A stretch of DNA of 64,000 nucleotides, taken from Puniceicoccaceae bacterium. Lineage in GTDB: Bacteria > Verrucomicrobiota > Verrucomicrobiia > Opitutales > Oceanipulchritudinaceae. The notes beneath the pieces are model-generated. The model had not been told where the DNA came from. It searched no databases and saw only the letters and a program-made list of their open reading frames with translations. The stretch is taken from positions 29,255 to 93,254 of the forward strand of contig JBFOMH010000011.1 of NCBI GenBank assembly GCA_040830765.1. The letters run 5' to 3'. Below are positions 6,322-42,180 of this stretch, piece after piece. The translations under genes and the position numbers were made by a program. Every line of letters starts with the position of its first letter. Positions within the stretch are counted from its first letter, which is position 1.

Positions 6322-6408
6322 AACTGGAGCCATGCGGCAAACGGTCTCGAAACAAGTACCTTGTCTTCGTCGCTGGAATTGTCAGTATCTGACGCAACGC
6401 CGGGATTC

Positions 6409-7290
6409 ATGAAATACGAACGCCTTCTCCTGCTGATGCTGACTTGCCTGACAACAGGAACCAACGCCGAAGAGACGATCCCTGTAGACGGTATAGGCCA
6501 CGTGGCGTTCGAGGTGGTTGATTTGGAGAAGTCACAGGCCTTCTACACCAAACATTACGGGTTCCTGTTCGCCTTCAGCGTCGATGAGGGACCGGAAGCA
6601 AGGTATCTGAAAATCAATGATGACCAGTTCCTGAAGCTTGTTGGGAAGCCGGAGGGAACGGATGATGACAGGCTGGTCGAGGTGGCCTTCGAGGTTTCTG
6701 ATCTTGAAGCAACCGTCACTTTGCTGCGGGCAAGGGGATTGAACCCGGGGCCTGTCAGGCGGAGGGCCGATGGCACATTGGCAAGCGTCCTCAGCGACCC
6801 CGAGGGCCATCGCCTGGTATTCGTCGAGTACGTTGATGGATCAGAGCAGGTTCTTGCTCGTGGTAAGCACCTGGGCGCGAACCGTGTAAGTGAGCGTCTC
6901 TGGCATGTTGGACTGACCATATCCGATGAAGCCGTGGCCAACGCCTTCTACCGAGATAAACTAGGCTTCGAGGAAGTCTGGCGAGCTTCCCGGACAGATG
7001 GCGGCCCGGATGCCTGGGTCAACATGCAGATACCGGGTGAGCGGGGCGACTACATTGAATACATCCTTCTCAACGGCACGACGCCTGATCGCCAGCGTCT
7101 GGGGACGATGCACCATGTTTGCTACATGATTGACGACATTGGGGAAGCCCATGCCCATCTGCTCTGCAATGGTTTGGCCGACCTCAAAAAGTACGAGCCG
7201 AGGATTGGACGTAATCAGCGTTGGTTGCTCAATGTGCACGACCCCGATGGGACACGCAGTGAGTTGATGGAAAACAGGCTAGCGGACTGA
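6409..7290 (+). CDS. secreted VOC (glyoxalase-fold) protein, two paired VOC modules
   Basis: Signal peptide MKYERLLLLMLTCLTTGTNA; GIGHVAFEV, DPEGHRLVFVE, LWHVGL, DYIEY, HHVCY, DPDGTRSELME motifs. Confidence 0.8.
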   Translation: MKYERLLLLMLTCLTTGTNAEETIPVDGIGHVAFEVVDLEKSQAFYTKHYGFLFAFSVDEGPEARYLKINDDQFLKLVGKPEGTDDDRLVEVAFEVSDLEATVTLLRARGLNPGPVRRRADGTLASVLSDPEGHRLVFVEYVDGSEQVLARGKHLGANRVSERLWHVGLTISDEAVANAFYRDKLGFEEVWRASRTDGGPDAWVNMQIPGERGDYIEYILLNGTTPDRQRLGTMHHVCYMIDDIGEAHAHLLCNGLADLKKYEPRIGRNQRWLLNVHDPDGTRSELMENRLAD

Positions 7291-17703: not shown

Positions 17704-17730
17704 TGGCAGGTCGGGGATCCGTCGCTTCGA

Positions 17731-19080
17731 TCAATCCTCATTAAGGCGGTTGTAGGAGACAGTGGCGCGGATGTCCGTCTGGACGTGGCGCTCGACGATC
17801 GGCTTGCGGGAGCCGCCATCCTCTTCGCCCCAGACAACCTTAACTTCGGAACCGTCGGGAACCTCCTCATCCAGCATGGCCAGGGAGAACCAGGACCGGA
17901 CATTGGCGGTGTAAACGGTGTAGGTTGAGAGACCCACCATGCGGTCGCCGACAAGCACCTTGTCGAACGGCAGGATGGAGTAATAGGCGTTCGGTACTTC
18001 CATGTACTTGTAACGCTCACCTTCGCCCAGCTGACTGGCGAAGACCTTCATCACATCCTCGTCGTTCCCCTTCAGCCAGAGTTTCCGGCGGTGGGGCTGG
18101 TCGACCATCTTTTCCAGTGCCTCGCGGCCAATGAAATCGTGATCGAACTTGATGTGCTTGCCGTAGCCGAGATCCCACGGGGTCTGGTAGTAGTCCTCAA
18201 TGTTGTCGGCATAGAAACTGCCCCCAAGGGAGGCATTGGCCTCGAAACCGTTGGCCGGGAGCCATTCGCGGTAGGCCTTCATCTTGTCCCCGGCATAGAT
18301 GGCCGGCATCGGAGAGGGGATCCAGCCGCTTTCGGGGGAGACAGTCGAATAGGCACGGCTGCCTCCCATGACCAATCCAAATTCCGGCCCCTTCTTGAGG
18401 ATTGCCTCAAGCACGACATCTCGGTCCTCGACGGGGCCATGGAGCTCAAGTCCACCCATTCTGGACATGTTGTGGTTGAGGGCACGCACTTTCTTGCCGG
18501 CGATCGTGAGGTCACCGAGATTGAAGAACTTGATTTCCGGGAATTCCCCTTCGTGGACGCTCTTGATGAGGTCGAGGGCGTTCGGTCCCTGAATCTGGTA
18601 CCGGTAGATGAGGCGGGAACCGTCATTGCTGACCGTGCGCTGGTCGCGCGTCACCTTGACATCGTAATTTCCGGTCTCGGCATGGAAATTGACCCAGTTG
18701 GGGACGGAGGGACGTCCAACCACGCTGACCTTGTCATCCGTGTGGCCAAAGAGAATGGCATCGCCGATGACATAGCCATCGTAATTACAGGCGACAATCT
18801 GCTTGGCCTTGTTGGCGGCAAAGTTCTTCAAGGTATTGACCCCGACGTCGGAAAGCAGGCGGCGTACGTCCGGCCCCTCAAAGTAGATGTCGGTCATGTG
18901 AAAGGACTGGTCAAAGAGGACGACGCTGTTCTGCCACGCCTGTTGTTCCTCGCGCCAGTTGGTGTATTCGCCCGGGAAAGGGAACTGGTAGCCGCCTACC
19001 TGTGCATGGCGGAGCATCTCGACGGGGCTGGGGTATTGCTGAAGCTTGGCTTCAAGACTGGTGGGTTGTTCTGTACTCAT
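17731..19080 (-). CDS. ligM: tetrahydrofolate-dependent aryl O-demethylase (LigM/DesA family, GcvT fold)
   Basis: VEMLR, NWREEQQAW, LFDQSFHM, AKQ, IGDAILF, VGRP, GSRAY, ESGWIPSPMPAIY, GGSF..NIEDYY, KFDHDFIGR, WGEEDGGSRK..VERH are colinear with recalled Sphingobium LigM. The ligM-versus-desA assignment is tentative. Confidence 0.85.
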   Translation of the reverse strand: MSTEQPTSLEAKLQQYPSPVEMLRHAQVGGYQFPFPGEYTNWREEQQAWQNSVVLFDQSFHMTDIYFEGPDVRRLLSDVGVNTLKNFAANKAKQIVACNYDGYVIGDAILFGHTDDKVSVVGRPSVPNWVNFHAETGNYDVKVTRDQRTVSNDGSRLIYRYQIQGPNALDLIKSVHEGEFPEIKFFNLGDLTIAGKKVRALNHNMSRMGGLELHGPVEDRDVVLEAILKKGPEFGLVMGGSRAYSTVSPESGWIPSPMPAIYAGDKMKAYREWLPANGFEANASLGGSFYADNIEDYYQTPWDLGYGKHIKFDHDFIGREALEKMVDQPHRRKLWLKGNDEDVMKVFASQLGEGERYKYMEVPNAYYSILPFDKVLVGDRMVGLSTYTVYTANVRSWFSLAMLDEEVPDGSEVKVVWGEEDGGSRKPIVERHVQTDIRATVSYNRLNED

Positions 19081-19131
19081 AATGGATAGTGGTTGATGTT
19101 GTGAGAGATTGAATATTGTAGTTGAAATTGA

Positions 19132-20412
19132 TTACACGGCCATGGGATTGAACTGGACGCCGCTCCGTGCCCGGGCCTCCTTGGCGCGGTCACGAATCTG
19201 GCGCAGGAATTCGTCGATAAGGGAGGGCGGCATCCCGAAGTTCATGACATGTACGCCAGCAGCGCCAACCTCGATGACTCCCTCAGCGATGCCGAAGGCC
19301 CAATCAAGGGCAGCCCGCTGGAAGTCTTCCTGTTCCATGATGGCGTGCAGGGACGGATCCACGTAGACCCCGGGCAAGCGGCAGAGTACCTTGAAGAGCT
19401 TCTGGCTTCCAACCAGGGGCAGTGAAGGAATGGTCAGCTTGGGGGCGTCCTCCCGTCCGGACCGGACCTGCTTGTACCATTCGGCAAAGGTCGGGACGTG
19501 GGTAATGGCCTGGGTCTGGCAGAAACGGGCCCCCGCGTGACGCTTGAAGGCCAGCCGGTCGACGCTGACATTCATCGGCGTGGAAAATGGATTGGCCGCG
19601 CAGCCGAAGAAGGGGACAATCCCAAGGCGGCTCTTCCAGTCTTCCAGTTCTTGGTTGGCGAAGTGGATCATCTGTGAGCTGTCCATGGGAAACCAAGTCT
19701 GCTGGGCCACCTTGCGCTCCTTGTCCGGGAGCCAGTCGCCGGTCAGCAGGAGGAAATTCCTGTAGCCCATGTCCATCGCCTTTTCGACCTCGCGGAGGAA
19801 GTCCTCCCGGTCGTGGTCGCGTCCGCAAAACTGGATAATCGATTCCACCCCATGGGCCATCACGACCTTGCCGGTCTCCGTAGAATGGAGCGACGGTACT
19901 CCTCCGGCATTGGTTGTGGTATTGACTGCATCGACCTGGTCATGGGTCCGGGCCATGATCTTCTCAACCCGCCAAAGACCGTCCTTGTTCAAGGGTGAGG
20001 CGATTTCCAAGGTGACAACAAACTCCCCCCGGCCCATTTTTTGGGCAAGTTGGGAACTGGCGGCAATATGGGTCGTGTCAATGAATTCGTGGGGGAGGCG
20101 GGTTTCCCGATCCTTGCCGTTGACGAAATTCACATAGCTGGCCGTATTGAGCAGCTCCTCCTTGGGCGGGAGGTGGATTTTCTGCGGCTTCTTCTGGTCT
20201 TTCTTTATCTCAATGTTCGTCCAGACGCAGTCCAGTTCCGGCAGGACTTCGCATTTGCCGTCGAGGGTCCCGCCACAGGGTCCGTTTCGCAGTCCCTTGG
20301 GACAATTCATCGGACAGATCAACTTGGTATGAGTAAGGATGCACTGGCCGCATGTCTGGCAGCCAAACATCTTTTCCTTCATCCATTTTTCTGCCTGGAA
20401 GATGACGCTCAT
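19132..20412 (-). CDS. metF: methylenetetrahydrofolate reductase: Cys-rich MetV-like domain fused to a MetF flavin barrel
   Basis: N-terminal FGCQTCGQC..CPMNCPKGLRNGPCGG..KCEV..CVW; then VVTLEI, QFCGRD, LLLTGD, AANPF, GARFCQTQ, GVHVM. Confidence 0.85.
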   Translation of the reverse strand: MSVIFQAEKWMKEKMFGCQTCGQCILTHTKLICPMNCPKGLRNGPCGGTLDGKCEVLPELDCVWTNIEIKKDQKKPQKIHLPPKEELLNTASYVNFVNGKDRETRLPHEFIDTTHIAASSQLAQKMGRGEFVVTLEIASPLNKDGLWRVEKIMARTHDQVDAVNTTTNAGGVPSLHSTETGKVVMAHGVESIIQFCGRDHDREDFLREVEKAMDMGYRNFLLLTGDWLPDKERKVAQQTWFPMDSSQMIHFANQELEDWKSRLGIVPFFGCAANPFSTPMNVSVDRLAFKRHAGARFCQTQAITHVPTFAEWYKQVRSGREDAPKLTIPSLPLVGSQKLFKVLCRLPGVYVDPSLHAIMEQEDFQRAALDWAFGIAEGVIEVGAAGVHVMNFGMPPSLIDEFLRQIRDRAKEARARSGVQFNPMAV

Positions 20413-20460
20413 AGGGACCTGATTGGGCAGGGAAGTGTTTCCTGCCGGTCGGGAATGGTC

Positions 20461-20522
20461 ATTATAGCAGATTTAGCGGCTTTATCTTGGATTATCCGGA
20501 TTTGTTTGATTGTATTATCCGG
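20461..20522 (-). promoter_or_regulatory. promoter of metVF-ligM with a tandem 13-bp direct repeat (candidate AraC sites)
   Basis: Minus strand: CCGGATAATACAA and CCGGATAATCCAA (20522-20510, 20499-20487), then extended -10 TGcTATAAT (TATAAT at 20466-20461). Confidence 0.6.
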
Positions 20523-20524
20523 CA

Positions 20525-21394
20525 ATGGATAATTTGAATCAAGCATTCAGGCGCCGCAAGGCCCCTGCCCGGATTGAAGTTCCGGAAGGGCAGGTCCGTG
20601 TCCTCGAAAGCCATCATGATGTCGATTTCCAGATGCCTGTCAGTACTTGGTCATTCCACAAGATATGCTGGGTGGCGGTTGGTAAGGGAGAGCTGGAGTC
20701 GGAAGAGGGCAGGTACTCCCTGCGGGCGGATGATATTCTTCTCCTGCCGGCAGATTGGCCCCACCGGTTTGTGGATGATCCAAGGGAGCCACTGACGCTG
20801 GTGATTCTTTGCATTTCCGGGAAATTCATGGAAGCCACCGATGGTGGTGGGAAGCCATCGCTGTGGGAATCGATTCGCGAATCCACAGCTCCCGGAAAGC
20901 CTTTAAGGGCCCGGACCGCTTTTCACCGCAGCAATTTAATCGAGATGTTCCGACTGGCCCTGCAGGAGCAGGGGAGGCAGCGCAGGGGTTGGGAGACCAT
21001 CCTTGAGACAATCGCCAGTCGGGTTCTGGTCAGCTTCGCCCGTGGGCACCTGGAGGAAGGAGAAGTCGATGGAAATTCGAGCCTGCGCTCTGTGGAAGGG
21101 GCCATCGAGTACATTGATACCCATGTCCACGAGCGGCTGACAATCGAGGAAATGGCCAGCCGCAGCAATTTATCTCCCCGACGCTTCACGACCCTCTTCA
21201 AACAGCTGACAGGAGAGACCTTCAGTAACTATTTGAACCAGAAGCGGATTGAGTACGCCTGCCAACGGCTCGATGAGACCGGCCACATTCTTTATGCCTG
21301 TCACGGATCCGGCTTTAACGACGTGGCCTATTTTTATCGCGTATTCAAGAAATTCACCGGGATGACGCCGGGTGAGTACCTTAAAAAAGCTTAG
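20525..21394 (+). CDS. AraC-family transcriptional regulator
   Basis: Cupin domain plus HTH (SGFNDVAYFYRVFKKFTGMTPGEY); divergent from metVF-ligM. Confidence 0.9.
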   Translation: MDNLNQAFRRRKAPARIEVPEGQVRVLESHHDVDFQMPVSTWSFHKICWVAVGKGELESEEGRYSLRADDILLLPADWPHRFVDDPREPLTLVILCISGKFMEATDGGGKPSLWESIRESTAPGKPLRARTAFHRSNLIEMFRLALQEQGRQRRGWETILETIASRVLVSFARGHLEEGEVDGNSSLRSVEGAIEYIDTHVHERLTIEEMASRSNLSPRRFTTLFKQLTGETFSNYLNQKRIEYACQRLDETGHILYACHGSGFNDVAYFYRVFKKFTGMTPGEYLKKA

Positions 21395-21487: not shown

Positions 21488-24400
21488 TTACATCGGTGGA
21501 GCCACTTCGAGGACCAACGCTGTCGTTGCCTGTCTGCTGCCAAGGCTCAAGGGGCCGCTGGCCGCCATGTAATCGACACCGGGTACCGGTTGGAAGACTC
21601 CGCCACCTTCCATGTAGAGGGCGACGACGACATGATAGTCGCCGGTTAAACCCGCATCCGGGAAGGCTAGGACGAGGTTCTTGGAGTCGCTGAGGATATT
21701 GTCGATATCCCCGATGCCATCCCCGTCCCCATCAGCATTGCTGATCTCCGCCAGGACTGCGGCAGGCGGTCCCATCACCGGCAGGCTGTGAGCCAGCGTG
21801 ACCAGCAACTTGCTCTTGTTGCCAGTGAATCCTTCCGGCAGGGAGATATCCACCACGAGGCTGCCTTCAGGATGGACTTGCTCCATGATGAAGGCCTTGC
21901 CGAAGGTCATGGTGGTACCGACCCAGTCATCATCACCATCATCATCCATGTCCTGCATGGCAAAATCACCCGGCAGGCGGATGTTCCTGAAGATGAGGTT
22001 CGGTTTCCATGGGGGCGGTTCCCCATGACCGGGATTCTGGTGCCAGAAACCGCGGTGGGCCGTATGGTCGGCACTGCAGACATCCATCAGGCCATCCTGG
22101 TCCATGTCGGCCAGCCACATGTCGCTGGGTGAGGTCAAGTCATCAATGATAATTTCCTGGGCCCATGGATCCATGAGGACGCCGCCCGGATTCCAGTAGC
22201 GGGTGACTGTAGAATTGAAGATCTGGTTGGCGATGAGGTCCTTGAAGCCGTCACCATCGAAGTCATGGAACCACATGTCGGCTGCTGCCCAGTTGTCGTC
22301 ATCTATGACGACCATGGGCCAGGGGTCGCCCCAGTGGCCCGGACCCGGATTGATGGCCAACCAGATCTCCCCGCGGTAGCGCGGTGGGTTGGTGTCCGGA
22401 ATATCAAACATGGCATTGTAGATGATTTCCGGGTAGCCGTCGTTATTGAGGTCGGCGCTCTTGTAGGCAAGCGTTCCCCGGATATGGGGATCGGTCGCCG
22501 GGTCCATCGGCAAGAGGTGTTCCACCCACGGGATCAGGGGAATCCCGGTATTCTCCAGCCAGCTTCCGACCGCCGAGGTTTGAAAGGCCCCGCTCAAGGC
22601 GAGGTCCTCGTCCCCGTCATTGTCGATGTCGGCGGCGACCACGATCATCGCATTGTAATTGGTCACGGTTGGGTCCGGATTGTGCCGGACCACCGAGCGG
22701 ACCCAGAGGTCACCTTCCTGCTTGTAGGAAAGAACAATACCCGAACCTTCTTCAAGCGGAGCCAGTTCGGGGATATTGCATCCGACAATGATCATCGGCG
22801 CACCGCTATGCTCGATAACCTTGACCCCCCATGGACTGTAGAAGAGGGGATCGCCTTCCGACCAGGAGTCGAGAATTTCCGTGGATTTCACGGTCATGTC
22901 TGGATTCATGTAGTAGACACCCAGCTTGAGGACCTCCAGCGGCAACTCGGGCTCTTCAAAGTGCGGTTCACCAACCATGATGATGTCCTTCACGCCGTCC
23001 CCATCGAGGTCGTAGACATCAAGGTAGATCGCTCCCGGGACAAATCCATCCTCACCCAGCATGTGTTCTTCCCAGAGAAGTGGCCCAGTCAGACGGTGTG
23101 GGTGGTAGGGATTGATGTCGCTTGGATTACCCTGCGGGATGAATAGGTCAAGGGCACCGAAGTCAGCTGCCTGGTCAGGATCGAAGATCAATGTCCCTGC
23201 TGAAAAGCCCCGGGCGTCGGTTGGCTCGACAACGAAGTTTGCGGCCACGCCGGTGACAACAACGAGACCGAGCCGCTCACCTATCAGTTCCTCACCGGAG
23301 AAGGTGAAGAGGTTGCCCTCGATGGGAATGTGGATGTCAATGGGGAATTCGGCCGGGACGGGAACGGTTTGTGTAACCACTGCCGTCGGGGTTGGCAGGG
23401 TCAGGTAGCCTTGGGGCCAGTCTTCCTCGGCGGTCTTGTAGAGCATCAGCTTCAGATCCGGTCCGGTCACTTCCTCAGCGTGGACCGTGACACAGATGGT
23501 CCCGCTTTCACAACTTGGCCCGATGATGGGCAGACCGAGATCCACCCGGCCGAAGTCGAGGCCCGTCTCCATCGAGTAGACGGCGGTATGGGTTGAGAAA
23601 CCACGCGGATCGTCCGGATCCGCTACCATGTCCGCCGAGGAGAGGATGGCCAGGCCAAGATGGGCCCCTTGGATGGGTTTGCCGCTCAAGGGCATAATGT
23701 TGCCATCCGGCGGAATACGCAGGCGTGCCGGGAAGGATTCGGGGACGGGCTGCGGTACGGTGATCATCCAATCCGGCATAGGCAGCCCGGTAAAGTCATC
23801 CGGCCACATGCCAGCCGACAAGTCATAGAGCATCAGCTTGAGATCATCCTCGACGGGAACAGTCGAATCCAGCACCACCGAGAGGGCCCCGGGTGGGTTG
23901 TAGTGGGATTCCTCATACATGTCCGGGGCGGTTTTCTCGAGCGCCTCCATGATGGCGATTTTTGCCAGGAACTCCAACCCGTCCCGGAAAAGTTCCTTTC
24001 CCGGTTCAAGATCGGCAATTCCGGTCGAAGTGTAATAGACCGTCATTCCCGAAGCGCGAACTTGGGTGACGACACCTTCTTGCGGCAGGACAGGTCGCCC
24101 CACAGCGGGATTGGCGACATCATACATCGTATGGATGGCCGCGGTCGGGAAGGCCGATGGTACCACCACGACATGGGTGTACCCCTCGTATTCAAATTCC
24201 GCCAGCGCATCACCAATTTCCGGTGTTGAGTAATTCATCCGTCCGGTCTTGGAGGCCCAGGGCAGGGACATGGCGATTTCCTCGTGAAAAGCGTCTTCCG
24301 TCTGGATTAGCTCCGAATAGATTTCCCCTTCCTGCCATCCGAACTCAGGGTAGGGAGGGACATAGGGAGTCCCGTGGGAAGCCAGCACCACCCCAATGTT

Positions 24401-25288
24401 GTGGTCCTGAACCCCCTCCGGAATGAATTCAGACAGGTACCAAGTCATTGAGACAATGGCATCGCGGAGGCTTTTGCGCATGTAGGGGACTTCAAAGAAG
24501 GGTTCCGCGACCATCACATCCATCCCATGGGTGAGGTGCTCCACCTCTTCCATCTGGCCGGTGATTTCATCGGTATGCGTTGATTTGGCGACCAGCATGG
24601 GGACAACCACCAGTTCATCGTAATCCCCCTGGGCGATTTCGTAGACAACATCCGGGATTCGCGGCACCTCATCCAGTAGAGCGAGAAAGACATCCACCTT
24701 GGCGCCGTGCACCTTGATATCGAGACTGTCGACATGGGCCTGTATGCTGTCGTTGTGAGGGCTGTAGTTTCCGGTCTCCGCGTAATGCATGTAAATGAGC
24801 CCGTGAAAGGCCTCCCAAGAGAAGAAACCGGGAACATCCCCGTGGGGAACAATTCCCACTTCATGGATGATGCCGTTGCCATTGATGTCGCCAAAGATGT
24901 AAGCCAGAGCAGTGGCAATTTCCTCGTAAGCCGCTGCCCACTCCGTGTACTGGAACATGGGCGGCACGCCCAGTTCAACCCCGTGCGGGCCAAATTCGGA
25001 TCCGTCCGGAAAAACAATGGGAATATCACCGTCCTCGGCGGTGGCGGGCTCCCCGTGGCCAACATACATCAGGGCCACCTTGGGAATGCGGTTATTGTCT
25101 TTGGGTTTGTTGACGGCGGCGCGTGCCTTATCAGAGGCCTGCGGAGGAAGCTGGACTTCCGGAGCGTATCTGTCGGCAAGTGTCCGGGACAGCTTTGACT
25201 TGAAAGCCTTGGCTTCCAGCGTGGACAATCCGAGCGGGGTAAGCAGCAATGCGGTGGCTATGCACCATGCGAGCGTGCGGATTTTCAT
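21488..25288 (-). CDS. secreted multidomain protein: class II (HemH/CbiK/CbiX) chelatase-like domain, two tandem ~120-aa domains, FG-GAP beta-propeller, C-terminal domain
   Basis: GGAGGA SD before ATG 25288; signal peptide. Chelatase motifs VGHGEP, HYAETGNYSPH, VVVPMLVAKSTH, VVLASHGTP, YSTPEIGDAL, VVVVPSAFPTAAIHTMYD. Repeated DxDxDG loops (DLDGDGVKD, DIDNDGDED, DLNNDGYPE, DFDGDGFKD, DMDQDGLMD, DMDDDGDDD). Confidence 0.8.
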   Translation of the reverse strand: MKIRTLAWCIATALLLTPLGLSTLEAKAFKSKLSRTLADRYAPEVQLPPQASDKARAAVNKPKDNNRIPKVALMYVGHGEPATAEDGDIPIVFPDGSEFGPHGVELGVPPMFQYTEWAAAYEEIATALAYIFGDINGNGIIHEVGIVPHGDVPGFFSWEAFHGLIYMHYAETGNYSPHNDSIQAHVDSLDIKVHGAKVDVFLALLDEVPRIPDVVYEIAQGDYDELVVVPMLVAKSTHTDEITGQMEEVEHLTHGMDVMVAEPFFEVPYMRKSLRDAIVSMTWYLSEFIPEGVQDHNIGVVLASHGTPYVPPYPEFGWQEGEIYSELIQTEDAFHEEIAMSLPWASKTGRMNYSTPEIGDALAEFEYEGYTHVVVVPSAFPTAAIHTMYDVANPAVGRPVLPQEGVVTQVRASGMTVYYTSTGIADLEPGKELFRDGLEFLAKIAIMEALEKTAPDMYEESHYNPPGALSVVLDSTVPVEDDLKLMLYDLSAGMWPDDFTGLPMPDWMITVPQPVPESFPARLRIPPDGNIMPLSGKPIQGAHLGLAILSSADMVADPDDPRGFSTHTAVYSMETGLDFGRVDLGLPIIGPSCESGTICVTVHAEEVTGPDLKLMLYKTAEEDWPQGYLTLPTPTAVVTQTVPVPAEFPIDIHIPIEGNLFTFSGEELIGERLGLVVVTGVAANFVVEPTDARGFSAGTLIFDPDQAADFGALDLFIPQGNPSDINPYHPHRLTGPLLWEEHMLGEDGFVPGAIYLDVYDLDGDGVKDIIMVGEPHFEEPELPLEVLKLGVYYMNPDMTVKSTEILDSWSEGDPLFYSPWGVKVIEHSGAPMIIVGCNIPELAPLEEGSGIVLSYKQEGDLWVRSVVRHNPDPTVTNYNAMIVVAADIDNDGDEDLALSGAFQTSAVGSWLENTGIPLIPWVEHLLPMDPATDPHIRGTLAYKSADLNNDGYPEIIYNAMFDIPDTNPPRYRGEIWLAINPGPGHWGDPWPMVVIDDDNWAAADMWFHDFDGDGFKDLIANQIFNSTVTRYWNPGGVLMDPWAQEIIIDDLTSPSDMWLADMDQDGLMDVCSADHTAHRGFWHQNPGHGEPPPWKPNLIFRNIRLPGDFAMQDMDDDGDDDWVGTTMTFGKAFIMEQVHPEGSLVVDISLPEGFTGNKSKLLVTLAHSLPVMGPPAAVLAEISNADGDGDGIGDIDNILSDSKNLVLAFPDAGLTGDYHVVVALYMEGGGVFQPVPGVDYMAASGPLSLGSRQATTALVLEVAPPM

Positions 25289-25443
25289 ATTAAATCCTCC
25301 ATAGAGCTTGTTGTTGTTCAAGGGACCCGGGGGGGTCCCTTCGGCGAGATGTTTTGGGGTGTAGTCGCTTGAAAGAAACGACTGAGTCTTGATATAGGGT
25401 ATTTACCTTAAGGTCAAGGTTGAATCTATTCCTTGGATCCAAT

Positions 25444-28169: not shown

Positions 28170-29717
28170 TCAGCGGTCGCTCCTGTAGCCCGACCAATCG
28201 ATACCTGCCAGTCCGGCAAGGTCCTTGTCCCAACTGGCAAGGTCCTCCTTGTTAAACTGATTGAGGTGGTCGTGACCACAGGCACGGGCCATGACCTGCA
28301 TCAGTTCAACACTGGCCTCGAAGAAGTTGGCCAGGCGTCTGGCTGCGACGTCGACCTTGAGCCGCTTGCGGAGCTCGGGCTTCTGGGTGGCGATGCCGGC
28401 CGGGCAGAGGTTGGTGTTGCAGATACGCGCGCCGACACAGCCGATGGCCTGCATGGCGGAGTTGGAGACGGCGACCCCGTCAGCCCCAAGGGCCAGTGCC
28501 TTGGCAAAATCCGTGTGGGTGCGCAATCCACCCGTGATGATAAGGGTGACCCTTCCGCTGGCGCCTGTCTTGTCCAGATAATGCCGGGCCCGTGCGAGGG
28601 CGGGAATAGTAGGAACAGAAATGTGGTTGCGGAAGAGCAGGGGAGCCGCCCCGGTGCCGCCGCCCCGTCCATCAAGGATGATATAGTCGGCTCCGGCAGC
28701 TACCGCGAACTCGATGTCCCGCTCAATGTGCTGGGCACTCAATTTGAAGCCTACCGGGATCCCGCCGGAGACCTCCCGCACGCGGTCGGCAAAGTGGGAG
28801 AAGTCCTCCACCGTGCTCAAGTCGGAAAAGGTTGGCGGGGAGACCGCCGGCTGGCCCTCCGGGATGCCCCGGACCTCGGAGATGCGGCCGGTATTCTTGT
28901 TGCCGGGCAAGTGTCCCCCGGTTCCGGTCTTGGCCCCTTGGCCGCACTTAAAATGAAAGGCCTGGACCCGCTCAAGAAGGGATTCCTCGTAGCCAAACTT
29001 GGCCGAGGCCAGCTCGTAGAAGTAACGGCTGTTGGCTGCCTGTTCATCGGGCAACATGCCGCCTTCGCCAGAGCAAATGCCCGTCCCTGCCAGTTCGGCC
29101 CCCTTGGCCATGGACACCTTGGCCTCCTCGGAGAGAGCGCCAAAACTCATGTCGCTGACGAACAGGGGAATCTGCAAATGTAGTGGTTTTTTCGCTTCAG
29201 GTCCGATGACGAGATCGGTTCCGACCTCGACATCCTCCATCAGCGGCTTTGTCGACAACTGGGCTACCATGAACTGGATTCCATTCCAGTCCGGCAGTTC
29301 GGAGCGGGGGACGCCCATGGCACCCATTTCCCCGTGATGGCCCAGTTTCTTGAGTCCATCCTTTGCTAGCTGGTGAATGAAGGCGACTGTCGGTTCTTCC
29401 GGAGTGGGTTCCGGTTCCGGCATGGCATCATCACCAGATGACGATTCGAGGGCGATTGCCTCCCCGATCTTGTCGTCGGGGATCCGCGCATGGGTACCAT
29501 CACAAAAGGGAGCGTTGGCTGACTGCTTGCACTGGCAAAGATGGGCTTCCCCGTCTTCTTCCGCAACGAAGGGCTTCGGGCTGAATCCGGTTCCTTTGTG
29601 TGAGCCGTCGCAGAAGGGCTGGTTGGCCGACTTGCCGCAAGTGCAGAAATAGTATTCTTCACCGGCTTTGAGTTCGATTCCCACCGGCTTGTTGTTGGCA
29701 ACGATTGGCTTATTCAT
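28170..29717 (-). CDS. glutamate synthase FMN-domain-like protein with two N-terminal CDGSH Fe-S domains
   Basis: CTCGKS..PFCDGSH and CQCKQS..PFCDGTH; DMSFGALS, CSGEGG, GQGAKTGTGGHLPG, DGRGGGTGAAP, C-x5-C-x4-CPAGIATQ. Confidence 0.88.
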   Translation of the reverse strand: MNKPIVANNKPVGIELKAGEEYYFCTCGKSANQPFCDGSHKGTGFSPKPFVAEEDGEAHLCQCKQSANAPFCDGTHARIPDDKIGEAIALESSSGDDAMPEPEPTPEEPTVAFIHQLAKDGLKKLGHHGEMGAMGVPRSELPDWNGIQFMVAQLSTKPLMEDVEVGTDLVIGPEAKKPLHLQIPLFVSDMSFGALSEEAKVSMAKGAELAGTGICSGEGGMLPDEQAANSRYFYELASAKFGYEESLLERVQAFHFKCGQGAKTGTGGHLPGNKNTGRISEVRGIPEGQPAVSPPTFSDLSTVEDFSHFADRVREVSGGIPVGFKLSAQHIERDIEFAVAAGADYIILDGRGGGTGAAPLLFRNHISVPTIPALARARHYLDKTGASGRVTLIITGGLRTHTDFAKALALGADGVAVSNSAMQAIGCVGARICNTNLCPAGIATQKPELRKRLKVDVAARRLANFFEASVELMQVMARACGHDHLNQFNKEDLASWDKDLAGLAGIDWSGYRSDR

Positions 29718-32609: not shown

Positions 32610-34529
32610 ATGTCTGTTCATTTTACTCCCAGCCAGTACTCTTCGATGAGAGAGTGTACCCGGATTTCATCGCGTGTCGGGAAGTGCTTTTTTTCCCTGT
32701 ATTTCCTGCTGGTGCATGCGATGGTTGCGCAAGGATTGCCGGTAACGGTCATGGATCCCGGCAACGATCCCCTGGCGTTAACCGTTGAAGCGGCAGATAC
32801 AATCCTCGAGCTCAAGGAAGAAATCCTCACCGCCCGTGGGTATCCGGTGGAGGAGCAGGTGCTTGTCTACGACGGGAGCCGGCTGGCTGACAGCAGTACC
32901 ATTGAGGAGAATGCAATAGTGTCCGATGGCGTCCTGTACCTGACCCTTGAGACAGGGGAGGGTATGGGGATCTCCAACGTCACCCTCGGCCCGGAGACAT
33001 TGGAAATTGACACAAACCGGATGACCATGGGGATCAGCCATGTTCTTGAACATTCCCCGGAGCTTACGGATCCTGCCGTGTGGAACAGCGAGGCTGAAAT
33101 TGTTGCCACATCAGCGGCGGACACCCTGACCATTCCAGCGCCGGAGGAAGCCTCTGCCTTTTACCGTGTCCGTGAACGGAATCCCCGCCCGCCGGTGACC
33201 CAGTACGAGGGTTACGAATTGATTTGGCATGACGAGTTTGAAGGACCTGATATCAATCCGGAGAACTGGGAACATCATCTTGGCGACGGGAGTCTGTATG
33301 GACTTCCTCCGGGTTGGGGAAATGCCGAGATGCAGATCTATACCGCTGAGCCGGCAAACTCGTCCATTGTTGGTGACGGTGAAGGGAATTCGGTCTTGCT
33401 CATCCAGGGGCAGCAGGATCCCATCGACGGCGGTATAACCTCGGCGAAGTTGGTCACCCAGGACCTGCAGAGTTTCCGCTACGGGCGCATTGAGGCGCGG
33501 ATCCGGTTGCCGTTTAGCAAGGGAGCCTGGCCTGCCTTCTGGATGTTGGGGATCAATCAGCCAATCGTCCCCTGGCCGGGCTGTGGCGAGATTGACATCA
33601 TGGAGATGCTTGGTGGCGAAGAGGACACGATACACGGAACGGTTTTTTATATTGATGCCGACCGGCAGCCAGGTGGATCCACGGATTTCGTGACGAATCC
33701 GTCCGGCCTATACAGCGATGCCTATCACATCTATCGTATCGACTGGACACCTACTGAAATCACTTGGTCAGTTGATGGCGTACCGTACCATACAACGCTT
33801 CTGGAAGATGACATGAAGGAGTTCCAGAGGGGCTTCTATCTTATCCTGAATCTGGCAGTGGGGGGATTCTGGCCAGGCAATCCCGATAGAACTTCCGTGT
33901 TCCCGATGCGCATGTTTGTGGACTGGGTTCGCGCCTATCGGGATGTGGATCTGGTGGATCCGGGCGAGCCGGCGTTGGATGTTGAAGAGGAAACGATCGA
34001 CGTGATTATTTTCGACGGCTCTGCGGCGATCAAGGAAGGCTTTGAACCGTTCCAGAATCTGGCCACCAAGACCTGGGGCCCGGGTGCACCAGAGGGGATG
34101 CTTTCCTTCGAAGCAGTTGACGGAACTTACAGCGTGCTGGACCAATGGAAATCAAACGGCTATGGCGGCATGTGGTGGGTGTTCACGGATCCCCTTGATG
34201 CGAACAAGGTTGTCCCTCAGGACCTCAGCGCCTATGAGGGAGGCAATCTGGTGATGGCCCTCAAGGTGCCTGAAACTGTTGCCTTCTATTTCGAGGTGAA
34301 GCTCGAGTCTTCAGGCCCGTTCGGCAAGGTTAACCTTCTCGATTACACCCCGGTGCCACTCAGCGGGGGCTTTGCCGAATACACCATCCCTCTGGCCGAT
34401 TTTACTTCCCAGGGATTTGACCTCACCAAGGTGACGATTCCTCTTGGACTCTGGAATCCCCAGAGTGAGCAGGGGGTTTACGTGGATGCAGAGGTCTTGA
34501 TCGACAACGTCCACTGGACGCTTCCGTAA
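32610..34529 (+). CDS. secreted GH16 beta-glucanase (laminarinase-like) with N-terminal ubiquitin-like domain and C-terminal CBM-like domain
   Basis: LIWHDEF, GWGNAEMQ, YGRIEARI, WPAFWMLG, GEIDIME catalytic motif, LILNLAVGG. Residues ~43-113 align without gaps to ubiquitin. Start may be ATG 32646. Confidence 0.88.
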   Translation: MSVHFTPSQYSSMRECTRISSRVGKCFFSLYFLLVHAMVAQGLPVTVMDPGNDPLALTVEAADTILELKEEILTARGYPVEEQVLVYDGSRLADSSTIEENAIVSDGVLYLTLETGEGMGISNVTLGPETLEIDTNRMTMGISHVLEHSPELTDPAVWNSEAEIVATSAADTLTIPAPEEASAFYRVRERNPRPPVTQYEGYELIWHDEFEGPDINPENWEHHLGDGSLYGLPPGWGNAEMQIYTAEPANSSIVGDGEGNSVLLIQGQQDPIDGGITSAKLVTQDLQSFRYGRIEARIRLPFSKGAWPAFWMLGINQPIVPWPGCGEIDIMEMLGGEEDTIHGTVFYIDADRQPGGSTDFVTNPSGLYSDAYHIYRIDWTPTEITWSVDGVPYHTTLLEDDMKEFQRGFYLILNLAVGGFWPGNPDRTSVFPMRMFVDWVRAYRDVDLVDPGEPALDVEEETIDVIIFDGSAAIKEGFEPFQNLATKTWGPGAPEGMLSFEAVDGTYSVLDQWKSNGYGGMWWVFTDPLDANKVVPQDLSAYEGGNLVMALKVPETVAFYFEVKLESSGPFGKVNLLDYTPVPLSGGFAEYTIPLADFTSQGFDLTKVTIPLGLWNPQSEQGVYVDAEVLIDNVHWTLP

Positions 34530-40758: not shown

Positions 40759-42180
40759 TTATTCAGGAGGCTGATAAGGATCGGGAGTCCCCAGTTGGAT
40801 GGGTGGCTCCTCTGCGAGCGTAGCCTGGAATTCGACGATCTTCTTGAACATGACCGGGAGAACCCATGTCGCCTCAGCCGCCATATTGTATTCCTCTTTG
40901 GGGTCCGATATGAGGTTATAGACCCGCGGAACGTTCAGTTGCCGGGGTTCGCTGTTCATGTTCTCCAGCTCGACCAGGTGCATCTTCCAGTTGCGCCATT
41001 TGTAGCCATATACATCATCGTTATTGAAGACGATAAAGCCCTCGCGGTTCGACTTTGCCTGCTTGCCAAGGAAGAAGTCCAGTTGGTCGACGCCATCGAT
41101 GATGCGATCGTCGGGTACCGTATAGTTTGCCACGCGACCCAACGTCGGGAGGATATCGACCACGTGGACAATCTCATTGCTGACGCTGCCTGCAGGAATC
41201 TTTTCGGGCCAGCGGATGAGGAAGGGAACCCGTAGCGAACCTTCCCAGGCGGTAAAGTAATTCCCCCGCCACGGACCGGCTGTGCCATGCCATGGATAAA
41301 AGTATTCCGGACCGTTGTCGCTCAACCAGATCACGAGCGTATTGTCCCGGATGCCAAGGTCATCGATGGCATCGAGGACCTGTCCAGACCGGTAGTCAAT
41401 CTCAGCGAGGACATCCGCGTAGTGGCCATTGCCAGTCTTCCCCTCGAAGTCCGGATGGGGCAGGGTGGGAAGGTGTGGTTGGGTGAAGGGGATGAAGGCA
41501 AAGAATGGCTCTTCTTCGGCCGTGCTTTTATTCATGAAGGCGACCGCCCGTTCGACCAGTTCACTGTCAATGGTTCGCCTCGCGGCCACGTCATACGGTT
41601 TCACCTCGGTCGGGATTTCCCCTTTCCTCGCTTCTGAAATGACGGCATTTACCCCGACATCCGGGTCGAATTGGAATTGTGAGGAGTATTCCGATTCGTC
41701 GGTCGTGTTGGCCACGCCATACCATTCGTCGAAGCCCTGATCCGTGGGGAAGCGGCCTGGTGTATCGCCGATGTGCCACTTTCCGAACATTCCCGTCTTG
41801 TAGCCAGCGTCTGAAAACAGCTCGGCCATCGTCACCTCCCAGTTGGTCAGCCCGTAGAGCATGCCCCAGACGACCCGCGTTGTCCCCGAACGGATAGGAC
41901 GCCGGCCGGTCATGAAAGCGGACCGTGTTGGCGTACACTGGGGCTCGACGTTGAAGTTCTGCAAGAGCATCCCCTCCCTGGCCAGTTGATCCAGTCGAGG
42001 CGTAGCGGCTCCCCTCAGTTCACCCCCGCCATAACATCCAAGTTCTCCCCAGCCAAGGTTGTCGACCATCATGACAACCACATTTGGTCGTTCCGGAACG
42101 GATTCGGCATGGGCCGTGACTCCGGCTATGAATGCAATCGTGAGGACTATTCCTGCAATTTTGGTTTTGCTCAGATTCAT
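40759..42180 (-). CDS. S1 arylsulfatase, secreted
   Basis: PNVVVMMVDNLGWG, CTPTR, GKWHIG, SDNGP; signal peptide. Confidence 0.92.
   Translation of the reverse strand: MNLSKTKIAGIVLTIAFIAGVTAHAESVPERPNVVVMMVDNLGWGELGCYGGGELRGAATPRLDQLAREGMLLQNFNVEPQCTPTRSAFMTGRRPIRSGTTRVVWGMLYGLTNWEVTMAELFSDAGYKTGMFGKWHIGDTPGRFPTDQGFDEWYGVANTTDESEYSSQFQFDPDVGVNAVISEARKGEIPTEVKPYDVAARRTIDSELVERAVAFMNKSTAEEEPFFAFIPFTQPHLPTLPHPDFEGKTGNGHYADVLAEIDYRSGQVLDAIDDLGIRDNTLVIWLSDNGPEYFYPWHGTAGPWRGNYFTAWEGSLRVPFLIRWPEKIPAGSVSNEIVHVVDILPTLGRVANYTVPDDRIIDGVDQLDFFLGKQAKSNREGFIVFNNDDVYGYKWRNWKMHLVELENMNSEPRQLNVPRVYNLISDPKEEYNMAAEATWVLPVMFKKIVEFQATLAEEPPIQLGTPDPYQPPE

Follow-up and report, generated by a model that had tools for sequence, protein, structure and literature searches.

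What does a bacterium gain from demethylating aryl methyl ethers if its genome holds no recognizable gene for cleaving the aromatic ring? This question is raised by a locus in a 64,000-nucleotide stretch of DNA from a Puniceicoccaceae bacterium (the whole stretch analysed is called the window here), in which a ligM-like gene lies behind a gene for a methylenetetrahydrofolate reductase (MTHFR) fused to a MetV-like domain, with an araC-type regulator gene on the opposite strand. The window lies on contig C11 of a genome of 3.99 Mb with a completeness of 96.9%, and the close relatives of its proteins carry the names Puniceicoccaceae, Opitutales and Pelagisphaera. A preliminary description had read the three genes as a metVF-ligM operon with a divergent AraC, through which methyl groups of methoxy-aromatics would enter the folate pool. 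Our results support that view by full-length homology to LigM, a pocket kept throughout a clade and a conserved core of AraC, MTHFR, ligM and purU genes among relatives. We consider it probable (roughly 0.7) that the genes form a regulated unit that takes methyl groups from a carboxylated methoxy-aromatic to gain one-carbon (C1) units. The system is of a known kind, a regulated two-gene demethylation unit.

All three open reading frames (ORFs) were present, with the domains assigned by Pfam. Positions 17731..19080 (minus strand) encode a tetrahydrofolate (THF)-dependent O-demethylase of the LigM/DesA family with 449 amino acids, as judged from Pfam, NCBIfam and PDB alignment. It carries the folate-binding domain GCV_T (PF01571, 113.9 bits), and its residues 3-442 align with residues 4-451 of the LigM chain (E 5.6e-135) in PDB entries 5x1i and 5tl4, the solved vanillate/3-O-methylgallate O-demethylase. 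It is also 49% identical to P0127, a representative that passes the LigM cut-off of NCBIfam. A search of 1.84 billion representatives returned 424 relatives at E <= 1e-30. Of the protein clusters listed, the 120 best-scoring were all at least 81% identical to the query. We calculated a maximum-likelihood tree from 89 rows (the window protein, 48 of 80 fetched loci and 40 representatives), omitting fragments, near-duplicates and P0251; the search was a fast one with no bootstrapping. Here the 23 demethylases from Verrucomicrobiota formed one clade with a support of 99 in the SH-like approximate likelihood ratio test (SH-aLRT). Members of the clade are 73-98% identical to the window demethylase, and the next relatives fall to 63%.

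The preliminary description had named a His, an Arg and a Tyr as important in LigM. The motifs concerned (DQSFHM, VGRP and GSRAY) are indeed found in the translation and align with LigM residues H60/M61, R122 and Y247; the LigM numbering was read from the HMMER alignment of the window protein to 5x1i. Altogether, 14 of 14 conserved pocket positions that we checked were kept in each of the 23 clade members (Y29, Q57, H60, M61, F110, V120 and R122 in the first half of the protein; Q165, Q167, F188, F189, E215, Y247 and W256 in the second). We take Tyr247 and His60 to be placed at the ether oxygen, Arg122 at the carboxylate and the remaining listed residues along THF; these roles reportedly go back to Kohler 2017 and Harada 2017. 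Outside the Verrucomicrobiota and a nine-row group of LigM equivalogs, the R122 position is occupied by Arg in just 23 of 57 rows, so that its retention throughout the clade is informative and suggests a carboxylated substrate. Judged from its sequence, the enzyme most likely demethylates an aryl methyl ether and loads the methyl group onto THF.

Other demethylases of the GcvT fold act on N- or S-methyl compounds, and a donor resembling dimethylsulfoniopropionate, betaine or methylamine is a rival to the aryl ether. The fold is shared with DmdA, trimethylamine N-oxide demethylase and sarcosine oxidase, to which the window protein gave weak NCBIfam matches (35.3, 34.5 and 36.8 bits, respectively). 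These matches, however, are about 15-fold weaker than those to LigM and DesA, and the protein is nested in the LigM/DesA radiation with the LigM pocket kept. We regard such a donor as extremely unlikely.

The partner gene shares the strand of ligM and lies 51 bp upstream of it (19132..20412, minus); it is a single ORF of 426 codons, coding for the proposed methyl-THF-oxidizing enzyme. Pfam recognized DUF5981 (PF12225, 77 bits), the MetV-like Cys-rich domain, in residues 5-74 (20191..20400, minus strand) and the TIM barrel of MTHFR (PF02219, 71.7 bits) in residues 123-390 (19243..20046, minus strand). The MetV-like part is N-terminal, and the homologues of the fusion have the same length. All 42 aligned sequences have the eight cysteines of the MetV-like part (18, 21, 24, 33, 37, 46, 54 and 62); these are also invariant in a set of ten and kept in the Opitutaceae protein, in which the domain order is reversed. 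According to PMC8760232, acetogen MetV is predicted to bind two 4Fe-4S clusters and MetF binds FMN, NAD(P)H not being used. By analogy, we predict a flavin and two 4Fe-4S clusters in the fusion.

In the AlphaFold (AF2) model, the blocks of the barrel from residue 111 onward mostly exceed pLDDT 90, falling to 44-81 near residues 161-180, 221-250 and 271-290; the Cys-rich part is modelled at pLDDT <50. The best Foldseek match of the barrel was E. coli MetF (1b5t; TM 0.75, by target) at 16% identity. At the sequence level, the fusion gave no match to S6MTHFR (7xg9) even at E up to 10. The genome also encodes a separate canonical MetF (contig C3, 298.9 bits), which indicates that the fusion is an extra, dedicated enzyme. 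Among its 410 homologues at E <= 1e-10, named ones came from Opitutales, Pelagicoccus isolates, Methylacidiphilales and Planctomycetaceae.

We compared 22 Verrucomicrobiota loci related to the window, locating purU in the relatives by tblastn. Their core consists of an AraC gene divergent from the series MTHFR-ligM-purU. The MTHFR gene adjoins ligM in 21 loci, the remaining one ending at a contig edge, and purU directly follows ligM in 19. In 12 loci the gene directly upstream of ligM is the window-type fusion with the MetV-like part first, and in seven (Opitutaceae, Cephaloticoccus) it is a fusion of reverse order, whose Cys-rich part is 36-39% identical to that of the window. The other two loci, L006 and L007, carry a plain MetF of 284 amino acids placed after purU, and the protein of L006 matches S6MTHFR (7xg9) at E 5.2e-42. 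In PMC11868366, S6MTHFR, a type 4 enzyme, is shown to oxidize the methyl-THF made by LigM. Three types of MTHFR, type 4 among them, thus fill one slot of the operon, which points to the same job for all three and argues that the fusion, too, would oxidize methyl-THF.

The position of purU at the end of the module in relatives suggests that the methyl group is oxidized to formate with release of free THF, and not just used to refill the C1 pool. C1 supply as proposed in the preliminary description stands for the entry into folate but is probably not the sole fate. The nearest non-verrucomicrobial locus (L027, Thiothrix) has the order LysR | ligM-metF-folD-purU, followed by the gene of a TRAP transporter; TRAP transporters carry carboxylates. 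Stand-alone modules for demethylation and C1 handling appear usual in this part of the family, as far as the sequences go. Across the order, the demethylase was found in 7 of 201 sampled genomes (none of nine others of the family, neither of two of the genus), and the window-type fusion only in the window's own genome among these 201. This patchy occurrence marks the module as an accessory trait.

The opposite domain orders, met in two sister groups, are an observation in their own right. MetV comes first in the window type, and MTHFR comes first in L013 (8325-9899), L017, L019, L026 and L031, that is, in Opitutaceae and an actinomycete (L031); only the Cys-rich part is clearly alignable between the two forms (36-39%). 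The pattern suggests that the fusions arose independently or that domains were swapped. In the actinomycete locus, as in Opitutaceae, the MTHFR gene is paired with a LigM-like gene.

The third gene (20525..21394, plus strand) encodes an AraC-family regulator with a cupin sensor and two helix-turn-helix (HTH) domains, for which Pfam gave HTH_18 at 70.5 bits, HTH_AraC at 64.9 bits and the cupin AraC_binding at 28.6 bits. Counted from an alternative start, TTG at 20510, the ORF extends over 20510-21394 (plus strand, 294 amino acids); the ATG at 20525 is the likelier start because all ten aligned loci show the corresponding CAT on the other strand. The divergent control region (20413..20524) holds ATTATCCGG twice, at 20491-20499 and 20514-20522 and 23 bp apart, and the copies sit in conserved blocks (20485-20499 and 20508-20527). 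Both blocks were kept in every one of the ten loci aligned, among them L006 and L007, in which ligM heads the operon. The minus strand reads TATAAT at 20461-20466; this site, found among promoter-like matches, is a candidate promoter of the operon. This layout of two blocks and a putative promoter is as expected for an AraC-type activator. Orthologues of the regulator (53-81% identity) were divergent from the operon in 9 of the 22 loci and weaker AraC-like genes (27-30%) occurred in six more; in L012, a glutamate dehydrogenase gene takes the position.

Contigs from two RNA-library runs of a mollusc metagenome (X2 and X3), which come from the study that also holds the probable source sample, matched ligM, the fusion gene and araC at 99% or more, and one of them spans the ligM/metVF junction (18893-19269). 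Both runs covered the neighbouring genes alike, and DNA carry-over is possible; we therefore dropped specific expression and co-transcription as conclusions from these libraries.

The preliminary description had called the module self-contained and asked for a genome search for dioxygenases of the protocatechuate/gallate type. This search found neither a LigB-type (PF02900) nor an intradiol (PF00775) dioxygenase in the window's own genome, and both profiles recovered their targets in control genomes. PF02900 was likewise absent from five other holders of the demethylase, two of which gave weak PF00775 matches (52.7 and 42.6 bits). This absence fits the reading as a self-contained module. That no ring-cleavage dioxygenase lies nearby holds overall, with one qualification: a two-domain VOC protein 11 kb away (6361-7290) is weakly extradiol-like, its HpaD match reaching 54.9 bits against a cut-off of 321.4.

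We propose the following course of events. The AraC regulator would bind the two ATTATCCGG repeats and turn on the metVF-ligM operon when its ligand, probably the methoxylated substrate, is present. The LigM-like enzyme would move the methyl group of the aryl methyl ether to N5 of THF and leave a catechol-type acid; the substrate would most likely be a methoxybenzoate-type acid, for example a relative of vanillate or syringate. The MetV-MetF fusion would convert 5-methyl-THF into 5,10-methylene-THF, and the electrons would travel by way of the flavin and both iron-sulfur clusters of the fusion to an acceptor other than NAD(P). Housekeeping reactions of the FolD, PurU, MetH and GlyA type could then direct the C1 unit to biosynthesis, or to formate and free THF. 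The ring would not be opened by a recognized dioxygenase and is probably released or handled by unrecognized enzymes.

Several findings on the demethylase, the module, its reductase partner and its relatives weigh against this proposal. NCBIfam scored the 449-amino-acid protein at 582.6 bits for DesA (cut-off 800) and 536.4 bits for LigM (cut-off 580), below both cut-offs, and the demethylases of L013 (Opitutaceae) and L027 (Thiothrix) also fell below them. Among 41 full-length representatives scanned, two passed the LigM cut-off (P0127 with 700.2 bits, P0123 with 586.6 bits) and none the DesA cut-off. P0127 sits in another branch of the tree than the Verrucomicrobiota clade. Moreover, LigM residues Y31 and H59 are both replaced by Phe in all 23 clade members. 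With scores below the equivalog cut-offs and a place outside the LigM-equivalog clade, the exact substrate is not fixed. The assignment to the LigM/DesA family and pocket, as given in the preliminary description, was borne out and equivalog status was not; by its sequence, the enzyme belongs to a sister clade with the same pocket and is neither a LigM nor a DesA equivalog.

The module itself is shorter in the window than in most relatives. By tblastn, the module purU was missing from the window, from its 98%-identical relative L005 and from L015 and L020. No formate dehydrogenase alpha subunit was found above the cut-off in the window's own genome, and no transporter in the window belongs to the module. 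FolD, MetH and a housekeeping PurU are encoded elsewhere in the genome (purU on contig C4, 46.6% identity); a complete route of methyl oxidation in this genome is putative. At the place where relatives have purU, a convergent sulfatase gene ends 27 bp from the ligM stop in the window (17704-17730), and L005 has about 500 non-coding bases (L005:11351-11868).

The oxidative direction of the fusion is read from genomic context, and the literature on its closest analogues points the other way. In PMC8760232, acetogen MetVF enzymes are mainly described as reductases driven by reduced ferredoxin. PMC11868366 states that type 3 MTHFRs 'likely catalyse the reduction', and its 2025 classification ties THF-dependent demethylases to type 4 and treats the iron-sulfur type as a reductase. 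The fusion might accordingly be a reductase making methyl-THF for methionine, its adjacency to ligM reflecting shared regulation and not a coupled pathway, much as MetVF enzymes have been characterized as methylene-THF reductases (PMC8760232). Against this stand the canonical MetF already present in the genome, the oxidizing S6MTHFR type in the same slot in L006 and L007, the purU gene in 19 of 22 loci, which is sensible only downstream of an oxidation, and the lack of any window-type fusion without ligM in the 201 genomes searched. We consider a biosynthetic reductase very unlikely and retain oxidation of methyl-THF as the proposed role.

A further difficulty comes from the Opitutaceae relatives, in which genes for a bicupin and a fumarylacetoacetate hydrolase (FAH)-family protein lie beside the regulator gene; this pair could stand for ring cleavage by unrecognized enzymes. 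The module would then be the first step of ordinary aromatic catabolism, its demethylated product being ring-cleaved elsewhere by cupin- or VOC-like enzymes that our profiles do not recognize. Seven Opitutaceae loci have the reverse-order fusion, and in those annotated (L013, L017, L019 and L026) the fusion gene and purU flank ligM; L013, L019 and L026 have the FAH-family gene, L013 and L026 the bicupin and an OPT-family transporter, and L019 the transporter. The window's own genome encodes a monocupin (contig C9) that is 40-43% identical to each half of the bicupin and an FAH-family hydrolase (contig C17) with 54% identity, in addition to the VOC protein 11 kb from the module. However, the monocupin and hydrolase genes are linked neither to the module nor to each other and lie among unrelated genes, and the VOC protein reaches 54.9 of the required 321.4 bits. 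The bicupin matched no gentisate or other ring-cleavage family in NCBIfam and only generic cupins in the PDB. The FAH protein scores equally against a sugar-acid hydrolase and aromatic-pathway enzymes, its best NCBIfam match being a hydrolase of the rhamnonate pathway (216.9 bits, cut-off 500). Together with the absence of PF02900 and PF00775 from the genome, this leaves ring cleavage elsewhere as an unlikely explanation, though one to be taken seriously, and we continue to favour demethylation for C1 units.

The arrangement in Opitutaceae deserves a description of its own. The FAH-family gene is upstream of the AraC-like gene in L013 (938-7262), L026 (1618-7543) and L019 (82-3591); an OPT-family transporter accompanies the bicupin in L013 and L026 and occurs in L019 without an annotated bicupin. 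We tried the bicupin as a gentisate dioxygenase and rejected this assignment, as neither NCBIfam nor the PDB supported it and the best PDB matches were generic cupins. The set could represent an undescribed branch for ring opening or for diketo acids.

The surroundings of the module suggest quite another substrate. On its low-coordinate side are glycoside hydrolase genes of families GH78, GH106 and GH5 together with genes for BNR proteins and for two sulfatases; another sulfatase gene, the third, is found at 40759-42180. Verrucomicrobiota feeding on sulfated methyl-pentose glycans typically have such rhamnosidase/sulfatase regions (PMC8857213). The preliminary description had placed the module beside an algal-glycan locus and named, as a less likely option, the demethylation of O-methyl sugars, in which folate would take the place of the P450 used by marine Bacteroidota. 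The ligM gene abuts a sulfatase gene beside GH78, GH106 and GH5, sulfatases lie within a few kb of the module in L014, L016 and L024, and the rhamnonate-pathway match of the Opitutaceae FAH neighbour (216.9 of 500 bits) would fit a sugar.

However, the module has other flanking genes in almost all loci (protein kinase, lactonase, polyphosphate kinase, transposase, planctomycete cytochromes and others), and the 98%-identical L005 has neither the sulfatase nor the BNR gene that abut ligM in the window. The genome contains at least 49 sulfatase-like genes, seven GH78 and four GH106 genes, so that proximity to a sulfatase comes cheaply. From the varying flanks, L005 and the abundance of sulfatases, we read the glycan adjacency as incidental; the link to the glycan locus is not conserved. 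The residues invariant in the clade include Y247, H60 and R122, which would protonate and hold an aryl ether bearing a carboxylate. In methyl transfer to THF, an alkoxide departs far less readily than a phenolate, and we know of no enzyme that cleaves a sugar methyl ether with the help of folate or a corrinoid. The invariance of the aryl-ether pocket and the poor leaving group weaken the sugar option, which gained no support from our analysis. The genome's one P450, whose gene lies in a sulfatase/oxidoreductase context, might serve this purpose; its PDB neighbours are generic P450s, and it is at most a candidate CYP236. Demethylation of O-methyl sugars by the window enzyme is, in our judgement, most improbable.

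A related reading combines the two Phe replacements (Y31F and H59F) with the repeated nearness of sulfatases and glycosidases and assumes a non-lignin substrate, namely the methyl ether of an algal or animal glycoconjugate. It could be an O-methyl sugar acid or else a methoxy-phenolic carrying sulfate or a glycosyl group; the whole reading is a long shot. If true, marine Verrucomicrobiota would possess a folate-dependent, oxygen-independent demethylation of glycan ethers, powered by a new iron-sulfur MTHFR. We keep to a methoxybenzoate-type acid as the most likely substrate.

The sole P450 gene of the genome (G000:C27:32619-33851, equivalent to L087:7619-8851) sits behind genes for a GFO/IDH/MocA oxidoreductase and a 104-amino-acid ORF, near a sulfatase and a PfkB kinase. 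Within the window, a 1277-amino-acid protein (21488-25321, minus strand) adjoins the AraC gene; it combines a CbiX/ferrochelatase-like chelatase region (residues ~178-403) with FG-GAP repeats and is 96% identical in L005. At 28170-29717 (minus strand), an FMN domain of the glutamate synthase type is fused to two CDGSH iron-sulfur zinc-finger motifs. A GH16 protein of 639 amino acids (32610-34529, plus strand) begins with a domain of the ubiquitin family (PF00240, residues 56-114; 40.4 bits, cut-off 25.4), which is odd for a bacterial glycoside hydrolase. From about 43000 to 64000, the G+C content falls from ~0.56 to ~0.48. This low-GC part encodes an MFS_2 sugar transporter, a reductase resembling 3-hydroxyisobutyrate dehydrogenase, a transaldolase-family protein, a weak phosphoketolase-like protein, a TonB-dependent receptor, regulators of the GntR and LacI types and two FAD oxidoreductases (PF12831). 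Possibly this is an island acquired for the utilization of sugars or sulfo-sugars.

To our knowledge, studies of folate-dependent O-demethylation have dealt almost exclusively with soil sphingomonads, which burn the ring afterwards. The present locus extends it to a conserved, regulated form in Verrucomicrobiota, with many records named for marine lineages and with hosts that lack the usual ring-cleavage enzymes. It suggests that dissolved methoxy-aromatics supply some glycan specialists of the sea with methyl groups, taken as a supplement of C1 units or energy, while the catechols are left behind. That a type 4 enzyme and MetV/MetF fusions of either domain order replace one another in one slot provides a direct, testable case for an oxidative iron-sulfur MTHFR and a handle on the electron acceptor of the fusion. 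Since the fusion occurs in named Pelagicoccus isolates, experiments are feasible. Among the matches listed in our literature searches, none described the module in Verrucomicrobiota by title or abstract, and those listed for MetV/MetF and its fusion dealt with acetogens only; Supplementary Data 1 and 4 of PMC11868366 were outside the scope of these searches.

The closest known system is ligM-metF-ligH of Sphingobium lignivorans SYK-6. Both have a THF-dependent aryl O-demethylase, a predicted one in the window, and a dedicated MTHFR on the same strand (PMC11868366). In both, a gene for a formyl-THF enzyme follows (in the window's case, among its relatives), and the window protein aligns with LigM over its full length and keeps the pocket. 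They differ in the MTHFR, which is S6MTHFR of type 4 in SYK-6 and a MetV-MetF fusion with no detectable match to S6MTHFR in the window. The regulator is of the MarR type in SYK-6, where we take DesR and DesX to be the proteins concerned, and of the AraC type in the window. Unlike SYK-6, the window lacks the module purU, its host lacks genes for protocatechuate 4,5-cleavage, and its demethylase lies in another clade and below the equivalog cut-offs.

A second comparison is with the cluster for dicamba in Rhizorhabdus dicambivorans Ndbn-20, which resembles the window in having a LigM-family demethylase, Dmt, with an MTHFR of its own that oxidizes methyl-THF (PMC11868366). The Thiothrix locus L027 has the same full set, ligM-metF-folD-purU, whereas the window module is without folD and purU and uses another type of MTHFR. 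Beyond Dmt and N20MTHFR, the Ndbn-20 cluster presumably comprises purU and a dehydrogenase/cyclohydrolase. The CYP236 route of marine Bacteroidota is alike in removing a methyl ether in a marine glycan degrader. It belongs to an unrelated enzyme class, and nothing ties the LigM-like enzyme of the window to sugars; the P450 is said to demethylate 6-O-methyl-galactose by oxidative chemistry that yields formaldehyde.

The type III MetVF of the acetogens Clostridium ljungdahlii and Acetobacterium woodii shares with the window fusion the MTHFR barrel and the Cys-rich MetV module (PMC8760232). In these acetogens the two are separate subunits, whereas the window has one polypeptide with MetV at the N-terminus. 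The window's host is a marine verrucomicrobium of assumed aerobic lifestyle, the direction proposed for its enzyme is oxidative, and the partner is an O-demethylase that depends on folate and not on a corrinoid. Measured against all of these systems, what is new is a clade of demethylases specific to Verrucomicrobiota, an MTHFR fused to a predicted iron-sulfur module where the literature expects type 4, and the occurrence of both in a host without recognizable ring cleavage.

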